In this document: piece after piece, positions 8,020 to 49,657 of the stretch
Layout of the letters: every line of letters starts with the position of its first letter
How positions within the stretch are numbered: position 1 is the stretch's first letter
Assembly (NCBI GenBank): GCA_964230215.1
Contig: CAXRGQ010000007.1
Span: forward strand, 234,863-298,862
DNA length: 64,000 bases
Source: Flavobacteriales bacterium
Lineage (GTDB): Bacteria; Bacteroidota; Bacteroidia; Flavobacteriales_D; JAUILH01
Direction of reading: 5' to 3'
Translations under genes and position numbers: made by a program
The notes under the pieces: generated by a model
Seen by the model: only the letters and a program-made list of their open reading frames with translations
Database searches by the model: none
What the model was told of the DNA's origin: nothing

Positions 8020-8718
8020 TTAATATTCAATAGAAAACTCGAATTGACTTTGTAGATGATGTAACAGCTTTTTCTTAACATCCTCCATTCGTACTTTTTC
8101 ACCAATTTCCTTTTCAATACTTGTAACCGCTTTGTCAGTAATTCCACAGGGTACAATGTGATTAAAATAGGACATATCTGTATTAACATTAAAACCAATG
8201 CCGTGCATGGTCACCCATCTACTGCACTTAACTCCCATAGCGCATATTTTTCTCGCGTTTGAAGAGTTTACATCCAACCATACGCCGGTTTCTCCAGAGG
8301 ATCTTTCTCCTTTTAAACCATACTCAGCAATGGTCAATATAACAGCCTCTTCTAGCAAACGAAGGTATTTATGAATATCTGTAAAAAAGAAGTCCAAATC
8401 CAATATAGGATAAGCCACCAACTGACCTGGGCCATGATAAGTAATGTCTCCACCCCTATTTATTTTGTAATAGGTAGCGTCAATAGATTTTAGAAATGTG
8501 TCGTTTACAAGCAAGTGGTTTTCTGAGCCACTCTTTCCAAGTGTATATACATGTGGATGTTCACAAAACAAAAGATGATGGGAGGTAGCAGCTGGTTCTT
8601 GATTTGCCTTTCTCGCCTCAATCTTCAACTCAACATTCTTCTGAAACAATTCAGTCTGATAATCCCAAGCCTTTTTGTAATCTATAAGACCAAGATCTTG
8701 AAAGTGAACTTTTTGCAT
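8020..8718 (-). CDS. lipB: Lipoyl(octanoyl) transferase
   Basis: EHPHVYTLG, RGGDITYHGPGQL, KICAMG, HGIGFNV and IVPCG motifs. Confidence 0.96.
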   Translation of the reverse strand: MQKVHFQDLGLIDYKKAWDYQTELFQKNVELKIEARKANQEPAATSHHLLFCEHPHVYTLGKSGSENHLLVNDTFLKSIDATYYKINRGGDITYHGPGQLVAYPILDLDFFFTDIHKYLRLLEEAVILTIAEYGLKGERSSGETGVWLDVNSSNARKICAMGVKCSRWVTMHGIGFNVNTDMSYFNHIVPCGITDKAVTSIEKEIGEKVRMEDVKKKLLHHLQSQFEFSIEY

Positions 8719-45231: not shown

Positions 45232-45248
45232 ATTACTACATTTACCTC

Positions 45249-45740
45249 ATGAGCACTCTAGAGGGCATTAGATCTAAGATATTTACAACAGACACTTTAG
45301 CCAATTTAAAGGCACAAATGGCGGGTAAAAACTCTGCCTTTACTAATGGCTGTTTTGATATACTCCATTTAGGACATGTAACTTACTTAGCCTCTGCATC
45401 TGATTTAGGCGACTTCTTTGTGATTGGCGTAAATGCAGACGCCTCCGTTAAGCGTCTTAAGGGCCCCAGCAGACCGGTTAAGGACGAATATTCACGTGCA
45501 TTAATACTTGCAAGTTTATCCTTTGTTGACGCCGTAGTGATATTTGAGGAAGACACACCCCTCGAGCTTATAACAGAATTACGCCCTCATACTTTGATTA
45601 AGGGAGGAGATTATGATCCGAATATTACAGACAAAAACGACCCTAAATACATTGTAGGAAGAGATTTGGTTGAGAGTGTGCGGGTAATTCCGTTTGTGGA
45701 TGGGCATTCTAGTTCTGGTTTAATTGAGAAGATGAGATGA
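45249..45740 (+). CDS. rfaE2: HldE/RfaE domain II-type nucleotidyltransferase
   Basis: FTNGCFDILHLGH, SVKRLKG..RP and KGGDY motifs. Confidence 0.88.
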   Translation: MSTLEGIRSKIFTTDTLANLKAQMAGKNSAFTNGCFDILHLGHVTYLASASDLGDFFVIGVNADASVKRLKGPSRPVKDEYSRALILASLSFVDAVVIFEEDTPLELITELRPHTLIKGGDYDPNITDKNDPKYIVGRDLVESVRVIPFVDGHSSSGLIEKMR

Positions 45741-46411
45741 TTACTAAAACAATTTACGTAGACGAACTGAAGGAAAATCATGTATCCTTTCGTTTCGAGC
45801 GAGGGTATAAGAAATTTCAAACCTTTTATAATGGGAAGTTTTTAGGTGAAATGAATGGGCTTTCAGAACTTCAGTCTGGAGCTGATTACGTAAGTGAAGA
45901 TGGTAATAAAATTCATGTTAGATTAGATAAAGATCGTTCTGGAAAATCCTATTTTGAAGTAGAATATAATTCAGTTCCTGCACCAATATCACCCAGATAT
46001 CCAGTAAAAACACTTAAGCGTGCATCCAATTGGGTTTTGGCGTTTGCCATAATATCTACCCTAATTGCTAGCTTATTAATCTATTTGTTATACCCAAGGA
46101 TCCTCGAAACATTCTACGGGTATGTTTATCCAGTAATAGCCATAACGCTTTTTTACTGTTTCTTTGGTATTAGGAAGTATGACCGAACATCTCTATTTAT
46201 CGCTATTATAATTCTGAGTCTTGACCTCTTACATAAGGTTGTTTTACAAATATATCTTGACACATTTGATTCAGGATTGTTTGAACTTTTAGAAATTATT
46301 GCCTTGGTTACTCTATTTAAAGCCATTAAACCAATGAACCAAATGCAGGAAATAAAAAGGCGTTTACAGGGTAAAATGTCTGAAGATATAATTGATGATG
46401 CTACTTTTTAA
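45737..46411 (+). CDS. Hypothetical membrane protein
   Basis: Soluble N-terminus plus about 4 TM helices; overlaps the previous stop (ATGA). Confidence 0.65.
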   Translation: MITKTIYVDELKENHVSFRFERGYKKFQTFYNGKFLGEMNGLSELQSGADYVSEDGNKIHVRLDKDRSGKSYFEVEYNSVPAPISPRYPVKTLKRASNWVLAFAIISTLIASLLIYLLYPRILETFYGYVYPVIAITLFYCFFGIRKYDRTSLFIAIIILSLDLLHKVVLQIYLDTFDSGLFELLEIIALVTLFKAIKPMNQMQEIKRRLQGKMSEDIIDDATF

Positions 46412-46430
46412 GGGGGTAGTTTCTTTAGCG

Positions 46431-46492
46431 CTAATGGCGATTGGCACTATAACATGTATAAGGAATAAAGTTGCTAACTTTAGTGAGACGTT
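46431..46492 (+). repeat. Leader repeat R1 copy a
   Basis: Near-identical to 47413-47476; contains CTATAAC and the palindrome TAAAGTT-GCT-AACTTTA, and ends GACGTT. Confidence 0.92.
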
Positions 46493-46582
46493 AGCCAGCA
46501 TTGAGGAACAGTCGCCTGAAAATTTTCCACAAACAAAGCAACTTTTTACTTACCTTTAGCGTTAGTATTGTAAGACGTGACT

Positions 46583-46864
46583 ATGATTAAATCTTTTGGG
46601 TCAAAGGAAACAGAAAAAGTGTGGAATGGAATTAGATCCAAAAAACTTCCTCTTGAATGCCAGAAGATTGGCCGTAGAAAGCTAAGAATGATTAACAATT
46701 CGATTGACATAAATGACCTAAGAGTGCCGCCAGCTAATAGACTTGAAAAGTTAAGCGGTAATCTAAGTGAGTTTCATTCAATCAGGATTAACAAGCAATG
46801 GCGTATTATTTTTAAGTGGAATAATGGAAACGCACATGAAGTAGAAATTATTGATTATCACTGA
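46583..46864 (+). CDS. higB: HigB-type (RelE/ParE superfamily) toxin
   Basis: MIKSF start, DLRVPPANRLEKLSG, HSIRINKQWRIIF and EIIDYH motifs; toxin-first gene order. Confidence 0.93.
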   Translation: MIKSFGSKETEKVWNGIRSKKLPLECQKIGRRKLRMINNSIDINDLRVPPANRLEKLSGNLSEFHSIRINKQWRIIFKWNNGNAHEVEIIDYH

Positions 46865-46865
46865 T

Positions 46866-47165
46866 ATGGAAAAGTTAGATAACATACACCCGGGTGAAGT
46901 TCTTCTTGAAGAGTTTATGCTTCCAATGGAAATTACAGCTTATAGATTATCTAAATCTATTAATATTCCACAAACAAGAATTAGTGAAATTCTTAAAGGC
47001 AAAAGAAGAATCACAGCAGATACGGCACTTAGGCTCGGTAAGTTTTTTGGAAATTCTGCTAAGTTTTGGCTTGGTCTTCAAGATGATTATGATCTTGAAA
47101 ATGAGAAAAACAAAAAGCAAAAAGAGTTTGACCAAATTCAGACATGGGAAAATAACGCAGCCTGA
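46866..47165 (+). CDS. higA: HigA antitoxin (HTH-XRE)
   Basis: IHPGEVLLEEF, RRITADTALRL and FWLGLQ..YDL motifs. Confidence 0.93.
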   Translation: MEKLDNIHPGEVLLEEFMLPMEITAYRLSKSINIPQTRISEILKGKRRITADTALRLGKFFGNSAKFWLGLQDDYDLENEKNKKQKEFDQIQTWENNAA

Positions 47166-47256
47166 CAACGGGTAAATCGAAAATGCCCAAGCGTCTGAAC
47201 ACACGCACTTTGTAGCCGTCATTTAATTTGTATTTTTAAACATACAACGTTAGAGA

Positions 47257-47412
47257 CACGCGTTTTATCCTGCCCCGTTAAAACCAAAATCCCCACCCCA
47301 TAAATACATTACGTTCTCAAACATTACCTTTACCTCATAGCAAAAGTGAAAAGAGCATATTTCTGTCGGAATTGTGGAGCGCAATCACCGAAATGGATGG
47401 GTAAATGCAGCA
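47257..47412 (+). repeat. Direct repeat R2 copy a: radA upstream region plus first 25 codons
   Basis: 156 bp, identical to 48213-48368 except G>A at 47339 and 47397. Confidence 0.95.
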
Positions 47413-47435
47413 CTAATGGCGATTGGCAACTATAA
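47337..47435 (+). pseudogene. radA: radA 5' fragment with dead start codon
   Basis: ATA replaces ATG; frame reads (I)AKVKRAYFCRNCGAQSPKWMGKCSTNGDWQL-stop versus intact MAKVKRAYFCRNCGAQSPKWVGKCSSCGEWD. Confidence 0.9.
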
Positions 47436-47476
47436 CATATTATAAGGAATAAAGTTGCTAACTTTAGCCAGACGTT
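47413..47476 (+). repeat. Leader repeat R1 copy b
   Basis: Near-identical to 46431-46492 (about 5 differences including two 1-nt insertions). Confidence 0.92.
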
Positions 47477-47519
47477 GTGCGCAATTGACGTAAGGAATTA
47501 AAGCAAAGCAATTATTACT

Positions 47520-47527
47520 TATTTTTG
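47520..47527 (+). promoter_or_regulatory. Bacteroidota -7 element for mntA-hepT
   Basis: TATTTTTG immediately before ATG 47532. Confidence 0.5.
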
Positions 47528-47531
47528 TATT

Positions 47532-47843
47532 ATGATTGATTTAGTGAAGAATAACGTTAAAGGATTGCAGGATATTTGCGTAAGATATAATGTAAAATCC
47601 CTTCACCTATTTGGATCGGCTGCTAAAGGTGACTTCAATTCTAACACGAGTGACCTAGACTTTGTAGTCGAATTCAATGAATCAATCGATCCAGTTGATT
47701 ACGCAGATAACTTTTTTGGTCTTCTAAATGAGCTAAAGCAGTTGTTTAAAATAGATGTGGATTTACTCTCTCAACGTGCTCTCAGAAATCCGGTTATGAT
47801 ATCAGAAATCAATAGTTCCAAGGTACAGCTCTATGCAGCATAG
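47532..47843 (+). CDS. mntA: Minimal nucleotidyltransferase antitoxin (MNT)
   Basis: LFGS-X11-DLD Pol-beta-type motif and VDLL; about 100 aa. Confidence 0.88.
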   Translation: MIDLVKNNVKGLQDICVRYNVKSLHLFGSAAKGDFNSNTSDLDFVVEFNESIDPVDYADNFFGLLNELKQLFKIDVDLLSQRALRNPVMISEINSSKVQLYAA

Positions 47844-48168
47844 CAAGATCTTCAAATATGTTCTTGATATTGAAGCGATTTTGGAGGAAATTGATTTTGT
47901 GAAAAGCAAACACCAATCTTTTGCTGAATTTGACTATGACTTTCTTGCTAAGAGAGCGATTGAACGCCATCTAGAAATTATAGGTGAAGCTGTTAAAAAC
48001 ATTAGGAAGATTGACCCAACTATTAAAATTTCATCGGTGGAACAAATCGTTAATCTGAGAAACTTAATCATCCATGCTTATGACACGGTTGACTCAGGGA
48101 TTTTATGGGGCATAATACAAAAAGACATTCCTGTTCTGAAAACGGAAATAAGTGCTTTAAGAGAATAA
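47833..48168 (+). CDS. hepT: HEPN ribonuclease toxin (DUF86/HepT-like)
   Basis: AIERHLEIIGEA and RNLIIHAY (RX4HXY) motifs; overlaps mntA. Confidence 0.9.
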   Translation: MQHSKIFKYVLDIEAILEEIDFVKSKHQSFAEFDYDFLAKRAIERHLEIIGEAVKNIRKIDPTIKISSVEQIVNLRNLIIHAYDTVDSGILWGIIQKDIPVLKTEISALRE

Positions 48169-48212
48169 CTACACACAACTAATCCGTATATTAGATAAAC
48201 TAAACGTTGGGG

Positions 48213-48368
48213 CACGCGTTTTATCCTGCCCCGTTAAAACCAAAATCCCCACCCCATAAATACATTACGTTCTCAAACATTACCTTTACCTCATGGCAAA
48301 AGTGAAAAGAGCATATTTCTGTCGGAATTGTGGAGCGCAATCACCGAAATGGGTGGGTAAATGCAGCA
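48213..48368 (+). repeat. Direct repeat R2 copy b (functional radA upstream region and 5' end)
   Basis: Matches 47257-47412 at an offset of 956 bp. Confidence 0.95.
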
Positions 48369-49657
48369 GCTGTGGCGAATGGGACACCTATCAAGAAGAA
48401 ATTCTGGAGAGCAATACAGCTAAGTCCAGCGGTGGTTATCAAAGCAGTAAAACACATCAAAGACCGCAAGCACTTGAAGAAGTGGAATCGTCAAATTTGA
48501 AACGTGTTGGGATTAAGGATACCGAACTTTCGCGTGTGTTAGGTGGTGGCATTGTGCCTGGATCCATTGTACTCTTTGGTGGGGAACCCGGAATAGGAAA
48601 GTCCACTTTGATGCTACAAATTGCCCTGCAAGAAAATAATTTAAAAGTGTTGTATGTGAGCGGTGAGGAAAGCTCTGAACAAATCAAAATGCGCGCAGAC
48701 AGAATTGATGCGGCCAACCCCAATTGTTTTGTCTTGAATGAAACCAGCACTACACTACTTTTTCAACATTGTAACGAGTTGGAGCCTGATTTACTCATCA
48801 TTGACTCTATTCAAACCATACATACACCTAAATTAGAAAGTGCGCCTGGCAGTATTTCGCAAATACGAGAATGTACGGCTGAGATTATGCGCATGGCCAA
48901 GGATAAAGGCATTCCAGTCTTTTTAATTGGACATATCACAAAAGAAGGCTCATTGGCAGGACCAAAAGTATTAGAACACATGGTAGACACGGTGCTCCAA
49001 TTTGAAGGTGACCGCAACCATGTCTACAGACTACTCAGATCGGTTAAAAACAGATTTGGGAATACGAATGAATTGGGTATTTACGAGATGTCAGGCGAGG
49101 GCTTGCGCGCAGTGGATAATCCAAGTGAACTGCTTATTTCAAATAATGACCAGGGACTAAGCGGAACAGCCATTGGTGCCACCATGGAAGGTTTACGCCC
49201 CTTATTAATTGAAGTACAAGCATTGGTGAGTTCTGCTGCATACGGCACACCACAACGTTCTAGTACAGGCTTTGACTTAAGACGTTTAAATATGCTACTT
49301 GCTGTGCTCGAGAAAAGATGTGGTTTTAAATTAGGCAGTAAAGATGTCTTCTTGAACATTGCGGGCGGAATTCGCGTGGACGATCCCGCCATTGATTTGG
49401 CCGTTGTAAGCGCTATTATGTCTTCAAATGCAGATATTCCTGTGGACACAAGCGTTTGCTTAGCCGGTGAAGTTGGCTTAAGTGGTGAAATTCGTCCAGT
49501 AACAAGAGTTGCACAGCGTATCTCTGAAGCAGAGAAGCTAGGCTACAAACAAATCATCATCTCTAAACACAATAAGGCCGTTAAAGCGCAGGATTTTAAG
49601 ATAACCGTGCACATGGTGGGTAAGATTGAGGAGTGCATTAAGTTGATGTTTGGGTAA
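48293..49657 (+). CDS. radA: DNA repair protein RadA/Sms
   Basis: C4 zinc finger, GEPGIGKST, KNRFG and Lon-like C-terminal domain. Confidence 0.97.
   Translation: MAKVKRAYFCRNCGAQSPKWVGKCSSCGEWDTYQEEILESNTAKSSGGYQSSKTHQRPQALEEVESSNLKRVGIKDTELSRVLGGGIVPGSIVLFGGEPGIGKSTLMLQIALQENNLKVLYVSGEESSEQIKMRADRIDAANPNCFVLNETSTTLLFQHCNELEPDLLIIDSIQTIHTPKLESAPGSISQIRECTAEIMRMAKDKGIPVFLIGHITKEGSLAGPKVLEHMVDTVLQFEGDRNHVYRLLRSVKNRFGNTNELGIYEMSGEGLRAVDNPSELLISNNDQGLSGTAIGATMEGLRPLLIEVQALVSSAAYGTPQRSSTGFDLRRLNMLLAVLEKRCGFKLGSKDVFLNIAGGIRVDDPAIDLAVVSAIMSSNADIPVDTSVCLAGEVGLSGEIRPVTRVAQRISEAEKLGYKQIIISKHNKAVKAQDFKITVHMVGKIEECIKLMFG

Follow-up and report, generated by a model that had tools for sequence, protein, structure and literature searches.

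How does a housekeeping gene come to stand behind two neighbouring units that have the same flanks and carry unrelated toxin-antitoxin (TA) systems? We address this question for the region upstream of radA in a Flavobacteriales genome, starting from a stretch of 64,000 nucleotides (the window) and extending to the rest of the genome, to relatives of the same order and to metagenome contigs. Our reading, with a probability of about 0.78, is that the two TA pairs are integron-type mobile cassettes, each sitting at its own copy of an attI-like site. The locus is a real integron-like cassette site that is by now largely fixed in place. The features are listed in the table.

Features of the radA locus and related sites, with the basis of each assignment (window positions unless a contig is given)
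Feature	Position	Strand	Basis or remark
R1a, attI-like docking site without adjoining integrase	46431..46492	+	crossover G 46490; TT 46491-46492 opens cassette 1
Cassette 1, 787 nt: higB + higA + attC_a	46491..47277	+	Pfam; G002 homologue with identical ends
higB	46583-46864 (46577 with GTG start)	+	HigB Pfam PF05015, 75.3 bits, match 46577-46864
higA	46866-47165 (46851 with TTG start)	+	HTH antitoxin PF01381, 29.7 bits, match 46851-47165
attC_a, decayed attC-like palindrome of full length in cassette 1	47160..47277	+	aligned with 18 other copies
Duplicated target copy a: radA upstream 59 nt + radA nt 1-76	47278..47412	+	leads directly into R1b
R1b, second attI-like docking site	47413..47476	+	crossover G 47474
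Cassette 2, 759 nt: mntA + hepT + attC_b	47475..48233	+	Pfam
mntA (MntA-type nucleotidyltransferase)	47532-47843	+	PF01909, 43.8 bits
hepT (HEPN)	47833-48168	+	PF01934, 69.6 bits
attC_b, truncated attC-like site: left box + right arm kept, left arm absent	48172..48233	+	compared with family
Duplicated target copy b: working radA promoter region + radA nt 1-76	48234..48368	+	133/135 to copy a
radA, 454 aa, intact	48293..49657	+	Pfam zinc ribbon, AAA_25/KaiC-type ATPase, Lon_C/ChlI
Candidate integrase, XerA-like tyrosine recombinase	G000:C6:330883-332022		R1-like site directly behind stop codon
Integrase-adjacent attI-like site	G000:C6:332023-332068		46 nt ending G/TT, then two cassettes
Cassette arrays	C6:67-5355; C7:1075087-1081631; C6:201933-210753		spacing and content of attC copies

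Alignments and Pfam agree on the order that had been read from the letters, R1a-higBA-R2a-R1b-mntA/hepT-R2b-radA, and the repeats are genuine. The two R1 copies are identical at 59 of 64 columns (92 %; three mismatches and two one-base gaps), and R1a holds an inverted repeat, AAAGTT-GCT-AACTTT, followed by 10 nt to G/TT (the slash marks the crossover). Similarity between the units ends exactly at this G/TT, at the GTT of 46490 and of 47474, as originally claimed. R2a (47257-47412) matches R2b (48213-48368) except at 2 of 156 positions, with ATA for the radA ATG and GGA for GGG; the lost start codon belongs to the duplicated copy (47337-47339). R2 has two parts. The opening ~21 nt (47257-47277 and 48213-48233) form the conserved right arm of a palindrome of ~130 nt that resembles attC and arrives with each cassette; the remaining 135 nt, to which the true local duplication is limited, derive from radA and its upstream region. 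The original prediction had set the right boundary at an ACGTT (GTT at 47249 and 48206), a position inside the repeat family; the true boundary of the cargo is the next GTT, with its G at 47277 and 48233 (CCCCG/TT). Its picture of the shared flanks as one scaffold holds for R1 and the 135-nt radA piece, which are duplicated, but not for the attC arm, which moves with each cassette. Homology of the radA upstream region with three relatives (G001, G002, G003) extends ~47 nt 5′ of the ATG and ends before G/TT.

All Pfam matches at the locus exceed the curated cut-offs, and the two cargos fall in different families, in keeping with the claim that the TA systems are unrelated. Cassette 1 encodes a type II HigB/HigA pair, in which the gene for a RelE-fold toxin is followed by an abutting HTH antitoxin gene. 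Cassette 2 encodes a MntA/HepT (type VII) pair, in which a nucleotidyltransferase antitoxin gene overlaps the following HEPN toxin gene by 11 nt; the translations show GS..DxD and Rx4H motifs. Both TA pairs are presumably active.

The palindrome that closes the cassettes belongs to a family with 22 firm copies in the genome by nhmmer (20 by a 23-nt core with at most 5 mismatches), mostly in cassette arrays. Neighbouring copies are separated by 0.4-1.4 kb, in which a single ORF or a single TA pair lies, and all sites have a single orientation relative to the ORFs. Examined on 19 copies, the sites are imperfect palindromes with ...AAC on the ORF-proximal and GTT... on the distal side, as in the attC of gene cassettes, and the AAC/GTT pairs are maintained in 17-18 of the 19. 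Across these copies 84.4 % of 418 cells are paired, compared with 25-48 % when the partners are slid, and the covariation score of 0.215 (0.074 or less in the comparison) was reached by 0 of 500 shuffles. The compensated pairs, among them GC:11/AU:8, CG:7/GC:7 and CG:11/GC:5, span arms that lie ~90 nt apart. When the left box of a site is compared with the reverse-complemented first 9 nt of cassettes, it agrees with its own cassette at 8.46/9 on average (n=13; 8 perfect), as against 5.56/9 for the start of the next cassette (n=16) and a background of 5.11/9. Such complementarity to the own start is the mark of integron cassettes recombining at G/TT: the cassettes are circularly permuted, cut at G/TT so that their own first bases complete the attC.

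At radA these sites have decayed. The left box of attC_a, GCCTGAC, overlaps the higA stop and its right-arm stem reads AGAGAC, compared with GGGGCA in the family; its fold energy is -12.3 kcal/mol, that of 17 other full copies -13.9 to -26.2 and that of the copy on contig C14 -10.4, and a short fold of attC_a gives no stem. Read by eye, the own-start match of the higBA cassette is only 6/9 here (background 5.1) and 8/9 in the copy of the sister species G002, and the left box of cassette 2, ACACACAAC (48171-48179), agrees with its own start at 7/9. In family members on contigs of metagenome runs X5, X6 and X10, the left arm (to 47196) is joined through 28 extra nt to the part beginning at 48180. 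The locus has the makeup of a CALIN, defined by at least two attC sites with no integrase near: its two sites (47160-47277 and 48172-48233) lie on a 1.08-Mb contig without a PF00589 match. A standard attC finder might miss both of them, damaged as they are. Because the units have decayed in place, with both attCs damaged and the duplicate radA start turned to ATA, the TA pairs at radA are probably locked in. The locus had been proposed to be a cassette-accumulating hotspot; it looks fixed rather than actively turning over, since both attCs are damaged and the order is kept in three other sample sets.

The window holds no integrase, as the original prediction had noted in concluding that a recombinase must act in trans, and the search for tyrosine recombinases that it suggested yields a candidate. 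All 11 PF00589 matches in the genome sit on three other contigs and none on the contig of the window. One of these genes, on contig C6, reads towards two cassettes and has directly behind its stop codon a site to which R1a is identical at 38 of 46 positions and R1b at 39 of 47 columns. This site adjoins the integrase gene and the first cassette starts there, as is characteristic of an attI; the left boxes of the two cassettes match their own starts at 9/9 and 10/10. The C11 integrase, near a contig end, has no R1-like site behind its gene.

The C6 enzyme falls outside the IntI type. Its TIGR02249 score is 196.5 bits against a cut-off of 265, which no protein in the genome exceeds, and the match falls into two stretches, with model positions 181-239 left out between them. 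The ~42 residues corresponding to the IntI-specific extra domain are absent, and in the alignment to VchIntIA (2a3v) chain residues 178-246 face only residues 278-304 of the query. The closest structures are archaeal XerA (4a8e, E 2e-45; 5hxy, E 6e-38), followed by VchIntIA 2a3v in two pieces, and the best NCBIfam model is XerA_Arch (229 bits, cut-off 220). The protein carries an additional N-terminal part of 108 aa, for which the only hits of an Atlas search were Bacteroidota clusters without a name, with values of 0.85-0.86 that fall short of the meaningful level.

Relatives of this integrase have the same arrangement. Of 401 genomes of the order, 176 have a match; among the best 30 loci the stop codon was located in 26, and in 25 of them the sequence continues for at least 60 nt downstream. 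In 22 of these 25 the stretch behind the stop has an inverted repeat with a GTT 2-9 nt after it, compared with 232 of 1250 shuffles. Where at least 1100 nt were available, the reverse complement of the start of the first cassette recurs 393-936 nt downstream in 7 of 9 loci (background 0.12 per kb). On the Chryseobacterium plasmid NZ_CP041688.1, the start G/TTGGGAAAAATCG occurs behind the integrase and again at an attC-like palindrome. We infer that the C6 integrase catalyses cassette insertion, and by analogy an enzyme of this type may recombine a folded single strand.

Insertion of the cargo at a defined site, as predicted, is borne out by the G/TT of R1 and by the higBA cassette elsewhere. 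In G002 this cassette is 92 % identical with the same ends (G/TTAG..CAGC and CCCCG/TT) and comes second in an array headed by a 292-aa integrase and an attI-like site; in X10 its left end is again exactly 46489/46490, behind a different ...AAAC/GTT site. The sites, their boundaries, the family-wide rules and the presence of the higBA cassette in another array are established by sequence. The suggested comparison of the region upstream of radA disclosed neither an empty R1-radA allele nor other cargo at radA in the relatives and metagenome contigs compared; G001, G002 and G003 have other genes there and lack R1. Pattern scans for R1 gave 0 and 2 loci in genome contigs and 5 in metagenome contigs, all 7 being AT-rich chance matches with no attC near. 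BLAST of R1b in 400 genomes of the order returned only 24-33-nt matches, the best of which, in genus g84, fall on the right ends of cassette repeats proper to that genus. A single-cassette allele was considered for X6, which has contigs on higBA and on radA and none on 47465-48068; at a depth of only 3-6 this is no evidence.

We propose that each TA cassette was once circular, beginning with TT and ending with a folded attC-like palindrome plus G. A tyrosine recombinase acting in trans, likely the XerA-like C6 integrase or its C11 paralogue, would have inserted the cassettes at the G/TT of a double-stranded attI-like R1, 59 nt 5′ of the radA start. The segment from R1 through the cassette and the radA promoter to radA nt 1-76 would have been duplicated by illegitimate recombination where radA nt 77-93 and the left edge of R1 share a short homeology. 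These 17 nt of radA agree gapless with the first 17 nt of R1a at 11 positions, a value reached by 320 of 300000 random 17-mer pairs. Either two chromosomes with different cassettes at the same R1 would have recombined, or a cassette would have been exchanged later at the new R1. Decay in place would have followed, with point changes in attC_a, loss of the left arm of attC_b and the change of the duplicate radA start to ATA. The enzyme's strand use and the order of events are what we infer, rather than observe; the two-unit scaffold is best explained by duplication at the short homeology, which accounts for it better than the cassette mechanism does. Between R1a and R1b 5 of 64 columns differ, and in the 135-nt piece only 2 of 135, which a single duplication fits only if the working radA copy is constrained. 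To our knowledge, attI copies without an integrase are not a described feature of integrons.

Other origins for these parts were tried and rejected. R1 as a degenerate fragment of radA or of the 3′ end of the integrase gene gave local alignments with p = 0.30-0.99 by shuffling; the left parts of R1b, R1a and the C14 and C6:242 copies were aligned with radA nt 1-130, R2a and the integrase end, and only the expected likeness of R1a and R1b was significant. As a folded attC, R1a reaches z 0.0 and -0.3 against shuffles, and R1b z ~-2.3 through its flanks only. Nor does 47278-47474 appear to be a separate cassette, the reverse complement of its first 9 nt not being seen inside it (by eye).

Among the alternatives, tandem duplication alone, with later divergence and without site-specific insertion, deserves next to no credence: it would account for the tandem copies of R1 and the 135-nt piece, but the cargos come from unrelated Pfam families, similarity stops exactly at the G/TT of R1, and the higBA unit is present elsewhere with the same ends. 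Very improbable, too, is the assembly artefact feared at the outset, in which two strain haplotypes with one cassette each were stitched in tandem through their shared flanks. The genome is in 16 contigs and matches marine metagenome runs, and the whole stretch is not spanned by any single run contig; the run data consist of contigs rather than reads, and the genome may have come from X1 itself. Against this, X1 contigs match 45726-47396 and 47367-48209 without mismatch, and the second takes 46 nt of R2a, including an A private to R2a, into R1b. (X1 contig depths are alike over both cassettes and flanks, at 7.4-9.4, but are not copy numbers and carry no weight here.) Contigs of X5 and X10, from two other studies, join the end of higA via R1b to the second cargo and the radA promoter, and a haplotype chimera would not produce the joint between radA nt 76 and R1. 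The same two cassettes occur in the same order in three other sample sets, some with a 172-bp deletion; the X5 and X10 contigs have a joint from 47215 to 47388/47390 (X10 record, 1103 nt).

Two further explanations concern the mechanism, and both are unlikely. Two successive insertions of an integrative element targeting the radA 5′ end could have built the tandem by accretion, R1 being the left end of the element and attC plus the radA 5′ piece its right end, which brings a replacement promoter and the first 76 nt. The radA promoter and 5′ end do recur at the close of every unit, which keeps radA intact; the radA/R1 homeology is located at the joint; and R1a, R1b and the C14 copy have a similar left limit with three different left flanks. 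However, the region left of the leftmost unit, where a 224-aa ORF stops 19 nt before R1a, lacks the displaced radA 5′ end that the host would have had; identity at the joint amounts to AGC and a patch 4 nt off, with no shared core of 6-8 bp across it; the C14 unit (R1 - Fic - attC) has no radA piece (p = 0.30 and 0.45); and the cassette ends alone act as integron cassettes elsewhere. Slightly less improbable is a Xer/dif-like chemistry, in which a XerA-type enzyme swaps modules between double-stranded sites without using the palindromes in folded, single-stranded form. The likeness of the integrase to archaeal XerA in structure and NCBIfam model and the missing IntI domain speak for it. The model for it would be the pdif modules of Acinetobacter plasmids, discrete modules moved by a Xer-type recombinase, often with TA pairs and with the same flanks around different cargo. 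There, short double-stranded XerC/XerD sites alternate in orientation; unlike them, the sites described here are long directional palindromes accompanied by an attI-like site. Their widely spaced arms with compensatory changes, their single orientation to the ORFs and their obedience to the own-start rule are attC traits, which 28-nt alternating dif-like sites do not share.

The reading as integron-type cassettes invites comparison with known integrons. Sedentary chromosomal integrons of the Vibrio type (PMC13108822; 10.1101/2024.07.02.601686) likewise have arrays of promoterless or TA-bearing cassettes, with TA pairs as frequent cargo, an attC palindrome of ~130 nt with AAC...GTT boxes, crossover at G/TT and a left box complementary to the start of its own cassette. 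They differ in that the integrase here lacks the IntI extra domain, has the 108-aa N-terminal part and points towards the cassettes, its stop codon being followed directly by attI, and in that the radA locus is integrase-free. Integrons with co-oriented integrase and cassettes share this orientation, but their IntI proteins have the extra domain. CALIN and SALIN elements and attG insertions (10.1101/2022.09.11.507474) resemble the radA locus in having two attC cassettes far from an integrase and by a resident promoter; the cassettes here differ in sitting at attI-like copies (38-39 of 46-47 to the true attI), not at a loose GNT site, and in that the docking site is itself duplicated.

IntegronFinder surveys report almost no integrons in Bacteroidetes, apart from lone integrases and one complete integron in Salinibacter (10.1101/2022.02.28.482270), and one preprint (10.1101/2024.07.02.601686) counts Bacteroidota among the clades earlier found without integrons. 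Our literature search, which left subscription journals, figures and supplements outside, found no paper on such cassette arrays in Flavobacteriia or Bacteroidota. Surveys of this type take the IntI extra domain as the defining mark of an integron, whereas the cassettes here sit behind a Xer-like enzyme without that domain. We tentatively suggest, at somewhat less than even odds, that Bacteroidota have their own widespread integron analogue. It would combine a XerA-like recombinase without the IntI domain and with a frequent private N-terminal domain, a gene that points towards its cassettes, an attI behind the stop codon, and attC and G/TT rules as in classical integrons. Scattered integrase-less attI copies would be secondary docking sites beside housekeeping genes, a spare radA promoter serving the second cassette.

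The radA locus, which has two docking sites, a damaged attC, a truncated one and naturally occurring deletion alleles, makes a compact natural substrate. Should the enzyme indeed move the cassettes, their capture would need no IntI insertion. This would bear on the evolution of integrases from Xer recombinases, the subject of PMC4792948, and marine Bacteroidota would offer a large stock of cassettes yet to be searched, among them TA genes and possibly defence genes.

The original prediction placed two repeat-flanked toxin-antitoxin modules in front of radA, and that layout is present: each repeat R1 is followed by a cargo and a repeat R2, with a HigB/HTH-antitoxin pair (higBA) in the first unit and an MntA/HepT pair in the second. 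All four toxin-antitoxin genes are full length, and they and radA score above the Pfam cut-offs. From 47278 and 48234 onward R2 consists of 135 nt, namely 59 nt of radA upstream region and radA nt 1-76; in R2a the start codon reads ATA. The right breakpoint had been placed at an ACGTT that turns out to lie 28 nt upstream of the true cargo boundary. Because the cassettes were circles cut at G|TT, this boundary is the G at 47277 and 48233, and the first ~21 nt of R2a and R2b are alike only because both cassettes bring the right arm of the same palindrome family.

Repeats at radA, cassette arrays and related loci. Positions without a contig prefix refer to the window; C6, C7, C11 and C14 are contigs of the same genome.
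Feature	Position	Remark
224-aa ORF	45737-46411	between rfaE2-like gene and R1a; overlaps upstream stop codon (ATGA)
R1a	46431-46492	aligned to R1b, 59/64 columns identical
R2a	47257-47412	2 differences from R2b in 156 positions
R1b	47413-47476	second R1 copy, left of mntA/hepT cargo
R2b	48213-48368	continues into intact radA
attC array	C6:67-5355	
attC array	C7:1075087-1081631	reaches contig end
attC array	C6:201933-210753	
C6 integrase	C6:330883-332022	379-aa tyrosine recombinase
Second integrase of this kind (L012)	C11:225500-226800	longer C-terminal tail, 410-aa open frame, 400 nt from contig end
Unit with R1-like site (L020)	C14:232118-233517	no integrase; Fic/DOC gene and family attC
R1-like site (L021)	C6:242750-242790, minus strand	no integrase; followed by 123-aa ORF

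The 224-aa ORF matches no Pfam family. Its place is taken in the related genomes G001 and G002 by different genes, including one of ~745 aa on the opposite strand adjoining radA, and therefore the whole interval between the rfaE2-like gene and radA has been remodelled in the lineage studied here. The 15 nt around the starts of these two genes (45237-45251 and 48281-48295) are 14/15 identical (TAC.TTTACCTCATG), perhaps reflecting a leader or promoter-proximal motif common to both. The sole significant match in a control alignment is a 16-nt near-repeat inside radA (48323-48338 and 48399-48414, AATTGTGGAGCGCAAT and AATTCTGGAGAGCAAT, 14/16).

Searched against its own genome, the stretch 47224-47500 matched 38 places, the genome-wide recurring part being ~56 nt ending CCCCGTT (47224-47279). 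An nhmmer profile finds 22 firm copies and one doubtful copy of this attC-like family; outside three arrays there are a single copy on C14 and two at radA, attC_a ending the higBA cassette and attC_b ending the mntA/hepT cassette. Array copies are spaced 0.4-1.4 kb apart with one ORF or one toxin-antitoxin pair between neighbours, and the cargo includes two ParDE pairs, a second MntA/HepT pair, an HTH antitoxin-like gene and a Fic gene. At their extended length of ~130 nt the copies are imperfect palindromes, each running from a left box ending AAC just past the ORF through a left arm, an AT-rich middle and a right arm to GTT. A structure written out by hand from folds is paired in 84.4% of the 418 cells of a 19-copy alignment, compared with only 25-48% when partners are slid by 1-3 columns. 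Its covariation score is 0.215, against at most 0.074 for slid partners, and none of 500 shuffles reaches 0.215. Compensated pairs lie ~90 nt apart (GC:11/AU:8, CG:7/GC:7, CG:15/UA:3 and CG:11/GC:5), and unaided RNAalifold recovers 11 of the hand-written pairs, 3 with compensations. The arrays C6:1-5355 (L017) and C7:1075087-1081699 (L018) reach contig ends and share several near-identical cassettes or attCs, probably the cause of the breaks in the assembly.

The attC that closes an integron cassette is completed by that cassette's own opening bases, those following G|TT. Comparing the 9-nt left box with the reverse-complemented first 9 nt of the same cassette gives a mean match of 8.46/9 for 13 cassettes of the three arrays (8 perfect), versus 5.56/9 for the start of the next, physically abutting cassette (n=16) and 5.11/9 for unrelated starts. 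Thus, the units were circles cut at G|TT. Both radA cassettes match their own starts weakly (6/9 and 7/9, by eye) because their attCs have decayed.

The genome-wide search for R1 suggested in the original prediction returned five R1-like sequences, one of which begins at the base right after the stop codon of the C6 integrase. This site agrees with R1a at 38/46 and with R1b at 39/47 positions, G|TT included, and the left boxes of the two cassettes behind it match their own starts 9/9 and 10/10. The order has relatives of this enzyme in 176 of its 401 genomes compared (E 1e-60 or better). Among the best 30 of these loci the stop codon could be placed in 26, 25 of them with at least 60 nt of flank; in 22 of the 25 a 7-12-bp inverted repeat, mostly 3-21 nt past the stop, is followed by GTT within 2-9 nt, a pattern that also comes up in 232 of 1250 shuffled flanks, with shorter stems. 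Fourteen loci were selected because a site could be seen by eye; nine of them extend 1100 nt or more downstream, and in seven of the nine the reverse complement of the bases after GTT (at most 1 mismatch in 9) recurs 393-936 nt downstream, right behind an ORF (background 0.12 per kb). The likeness to the integrase-linked site and this family-wide layout argue that R1 is an attI-type docking site, standing at radA without its integrase.

Other such sites were seen. The C14 unit, with its Fic/DOC gene (360 aa; Fic_N, Fic, SoFic-like_C), is flanked by two paralogous genes for small secreted proteins of 116 aa and 140 aa. A stretch to the left of the site at C6:242750-242790 looks like a reverse-complemented attC right arm. 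No R1-like site follows the C11 integrase. In four genomes of another family of the order (G206, G346, G382 and G063; L048-L051, L057-L059, L061), cassette repeats of at least 150 nt each end 27/30 identical (by eye) to the attI core of the genome studied here (TAAATTGCTAACTTTAGCCAAACG|TT), so that attC right end and attI look alike. On plasmid NZ_CP041688.1 of Chryseobacterium sp. SNU WT5 (L090), a gene annotated 'site-specific tyrosine recombinase/integron integrase' is followed by two occurrences of the same start G|TTGGGAAAAATCG (6113 and 8219-8372); the second opens a ~150-nt ORF-less unit ending in an attC-like palindrome and G|TT.

The prediction of no integrase in the window was borne out, with no tyrosine recombinase on its whole contig. 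The best NCBIfam model for the C6 integrase is XerA_Arch, 'site-specific tyrosine recombinase/integron integrase' (229 bits, cut-off 220); the IntI model gives 196.5 bits, below its cut-off of 265, skipping model positions 181-239. Solved structures rank XerA 4a8e, XerA 5hxy and VchIntIA 2a3v, the last aligned in two pieces with ~42 IntI residues (178-246) lacking a counterpart. Residues 1-108 match no Pfam family and, in the Atlas, only unnamed Bacteroidota clusters below a meaningful level. Six plasmid relatives among the matches listed cover at least 95% of the enzyme, all from Bacteroidota genera and annotated with that same ambiguous 'site-specific tyrosine recombinase/integron integrase' label or as xerA. 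We link the radA cassettes to a particular integrase by site likeness, and infer catalysis, strand choice and toxin-antitoxin activity.

The attC-type sites and the cassette rule of the arrays are those of integrons. However, the enzyme fails the defining IntI test, integrase, attI and cassettes are co-directional, and attI copies occur without an integrase. Toxin-antitoxin cassettes are described as typical cargo of chromosomal integrons (10.1101/2024.07.02.601686; PMC13108822). The names CALIN and SALIN are used for elements whose cassettes lie apart from an integrase, and attG for insertion at loose sites in the genome (10.1101/2022.09.11.507474). For Bacteroidetes, the IntegronFinder 2 preprint (10.1101/2022.02.28.482270) states that earlier work had given only lone integrases, and reports a single complete integron, in Salinibacter; 10.1101/2024.07.02.601686 counts Bacteroidota among clades where no integrons had been found before, and a review lists them among phyla with integrons detected. 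The main text of the openly accessible papers searched contained no description of such cassette arrays in Flavobacteriia or Bacteroidota.

The higBA cassette recurs in G002, of the same genus, 92% identical across 46485 to 47289, where it takes second place in an array headed by a 292-aa integrase and attI-like site; the first cassette is 3.6 kb with four ORFs (left box versus own start 9/9). There higBA begins ...GAGACC G|TTAGGCAGC, immediately past the other cassette's attC, and ends CCCCG|TT before an unrelated ORF. In a contig of metagenome run X10 the cassette starts exactly at 46489, and the sequence before it is unlike, ending ...TTTAGCCAAAC ahead of GTT. Cassettes thus appear to move as units. 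Of the expected breakpoints in relatives, both G|TT ends of higBA are kept in G002 and the left one in X10; the radA loci of G001, G002 and G003 have other genes, with neither attC nor R1 found there, and radA upstream homology among the four genomes ends ~47 nt ahead of the ATG and does not quite reach G|TT.

Minus both cassettes, the scaffold is R1, 135 nt, R1, 135 nt, radA, which is a tandem duplication with a novel joint between radA nt 76 and R1b. Nucleotides 77-93 of radA match the first 17 nt of R1a at 11/17 without gaps (patch TGGCGA.TGG), a level reached by 320 of 300000 random 17-mer pairs from the window; our reading is illegitimate recombination at short homeology. Either two chromosomes with different cassettes at the same R1 recombined, or a plain duplication came first and the cassette at one R1 was exchanged later. 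R1a and R1b differ more (5/64) than the 135-nt pieces (2/135). Constraint on the working radA copy would make this gap compatible with a single event, and a two-allele origin fits it equally well.

Population data are Logan contigs only. Run X1, possibly the source sample, has one contig over 45726-47396 and another over 47367-48209, both with zero mismatches; the second includes 46 nt of R2a with its private base and runs on into R1b. No single contig in the runs examined spans the whole two-cassette stretch. Contigs of X5 and X10, which come from two other studies, carry a 172-bp deletion at CCG microhomology (47215 joined to 47388/47390). Lost with it are half of attC_a (the right one), the spare promoter and radA nt 1-51. 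Past the deletion, an X10 contig (1103 nt) has R1b and 876 other letters, 780 nt in our genome, up to the radA promoter. These strains differ by 2.4-3.3% in higBA and 6.8-8.6% in the second cassette yet keep the cassette order, which is therefore common to diverged strains. Rather than the predicted cassette-accumulating hotspot, the radA array appears to be inherited, not turning over, and the undeleted form would be the older one.

Contigs of X5, X6 and X10 link the family left arm via 28 nt to the part from 48180; attC_b in our genome has therefore lost its left arm. attC_a is altered in its left box (GCCTGAC), which overlaps the stop codon of higA, and its right-arm stem is broken; its fold energy of -12.3 kcal/mol is weaker than those of 17 other full copies (-13.9 to -26.2). 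Since excision needs attC, both toxin-antitoxin pairs are probably locked in at radA. R1a and R1b, with the core of the integrase-linked attI kept, could still accept cassettes. The spare radA promoter, its ATG lost, stands directly upstream of R1b and the mntA/hepT cassette, for which it may serve as a cassette promoter.
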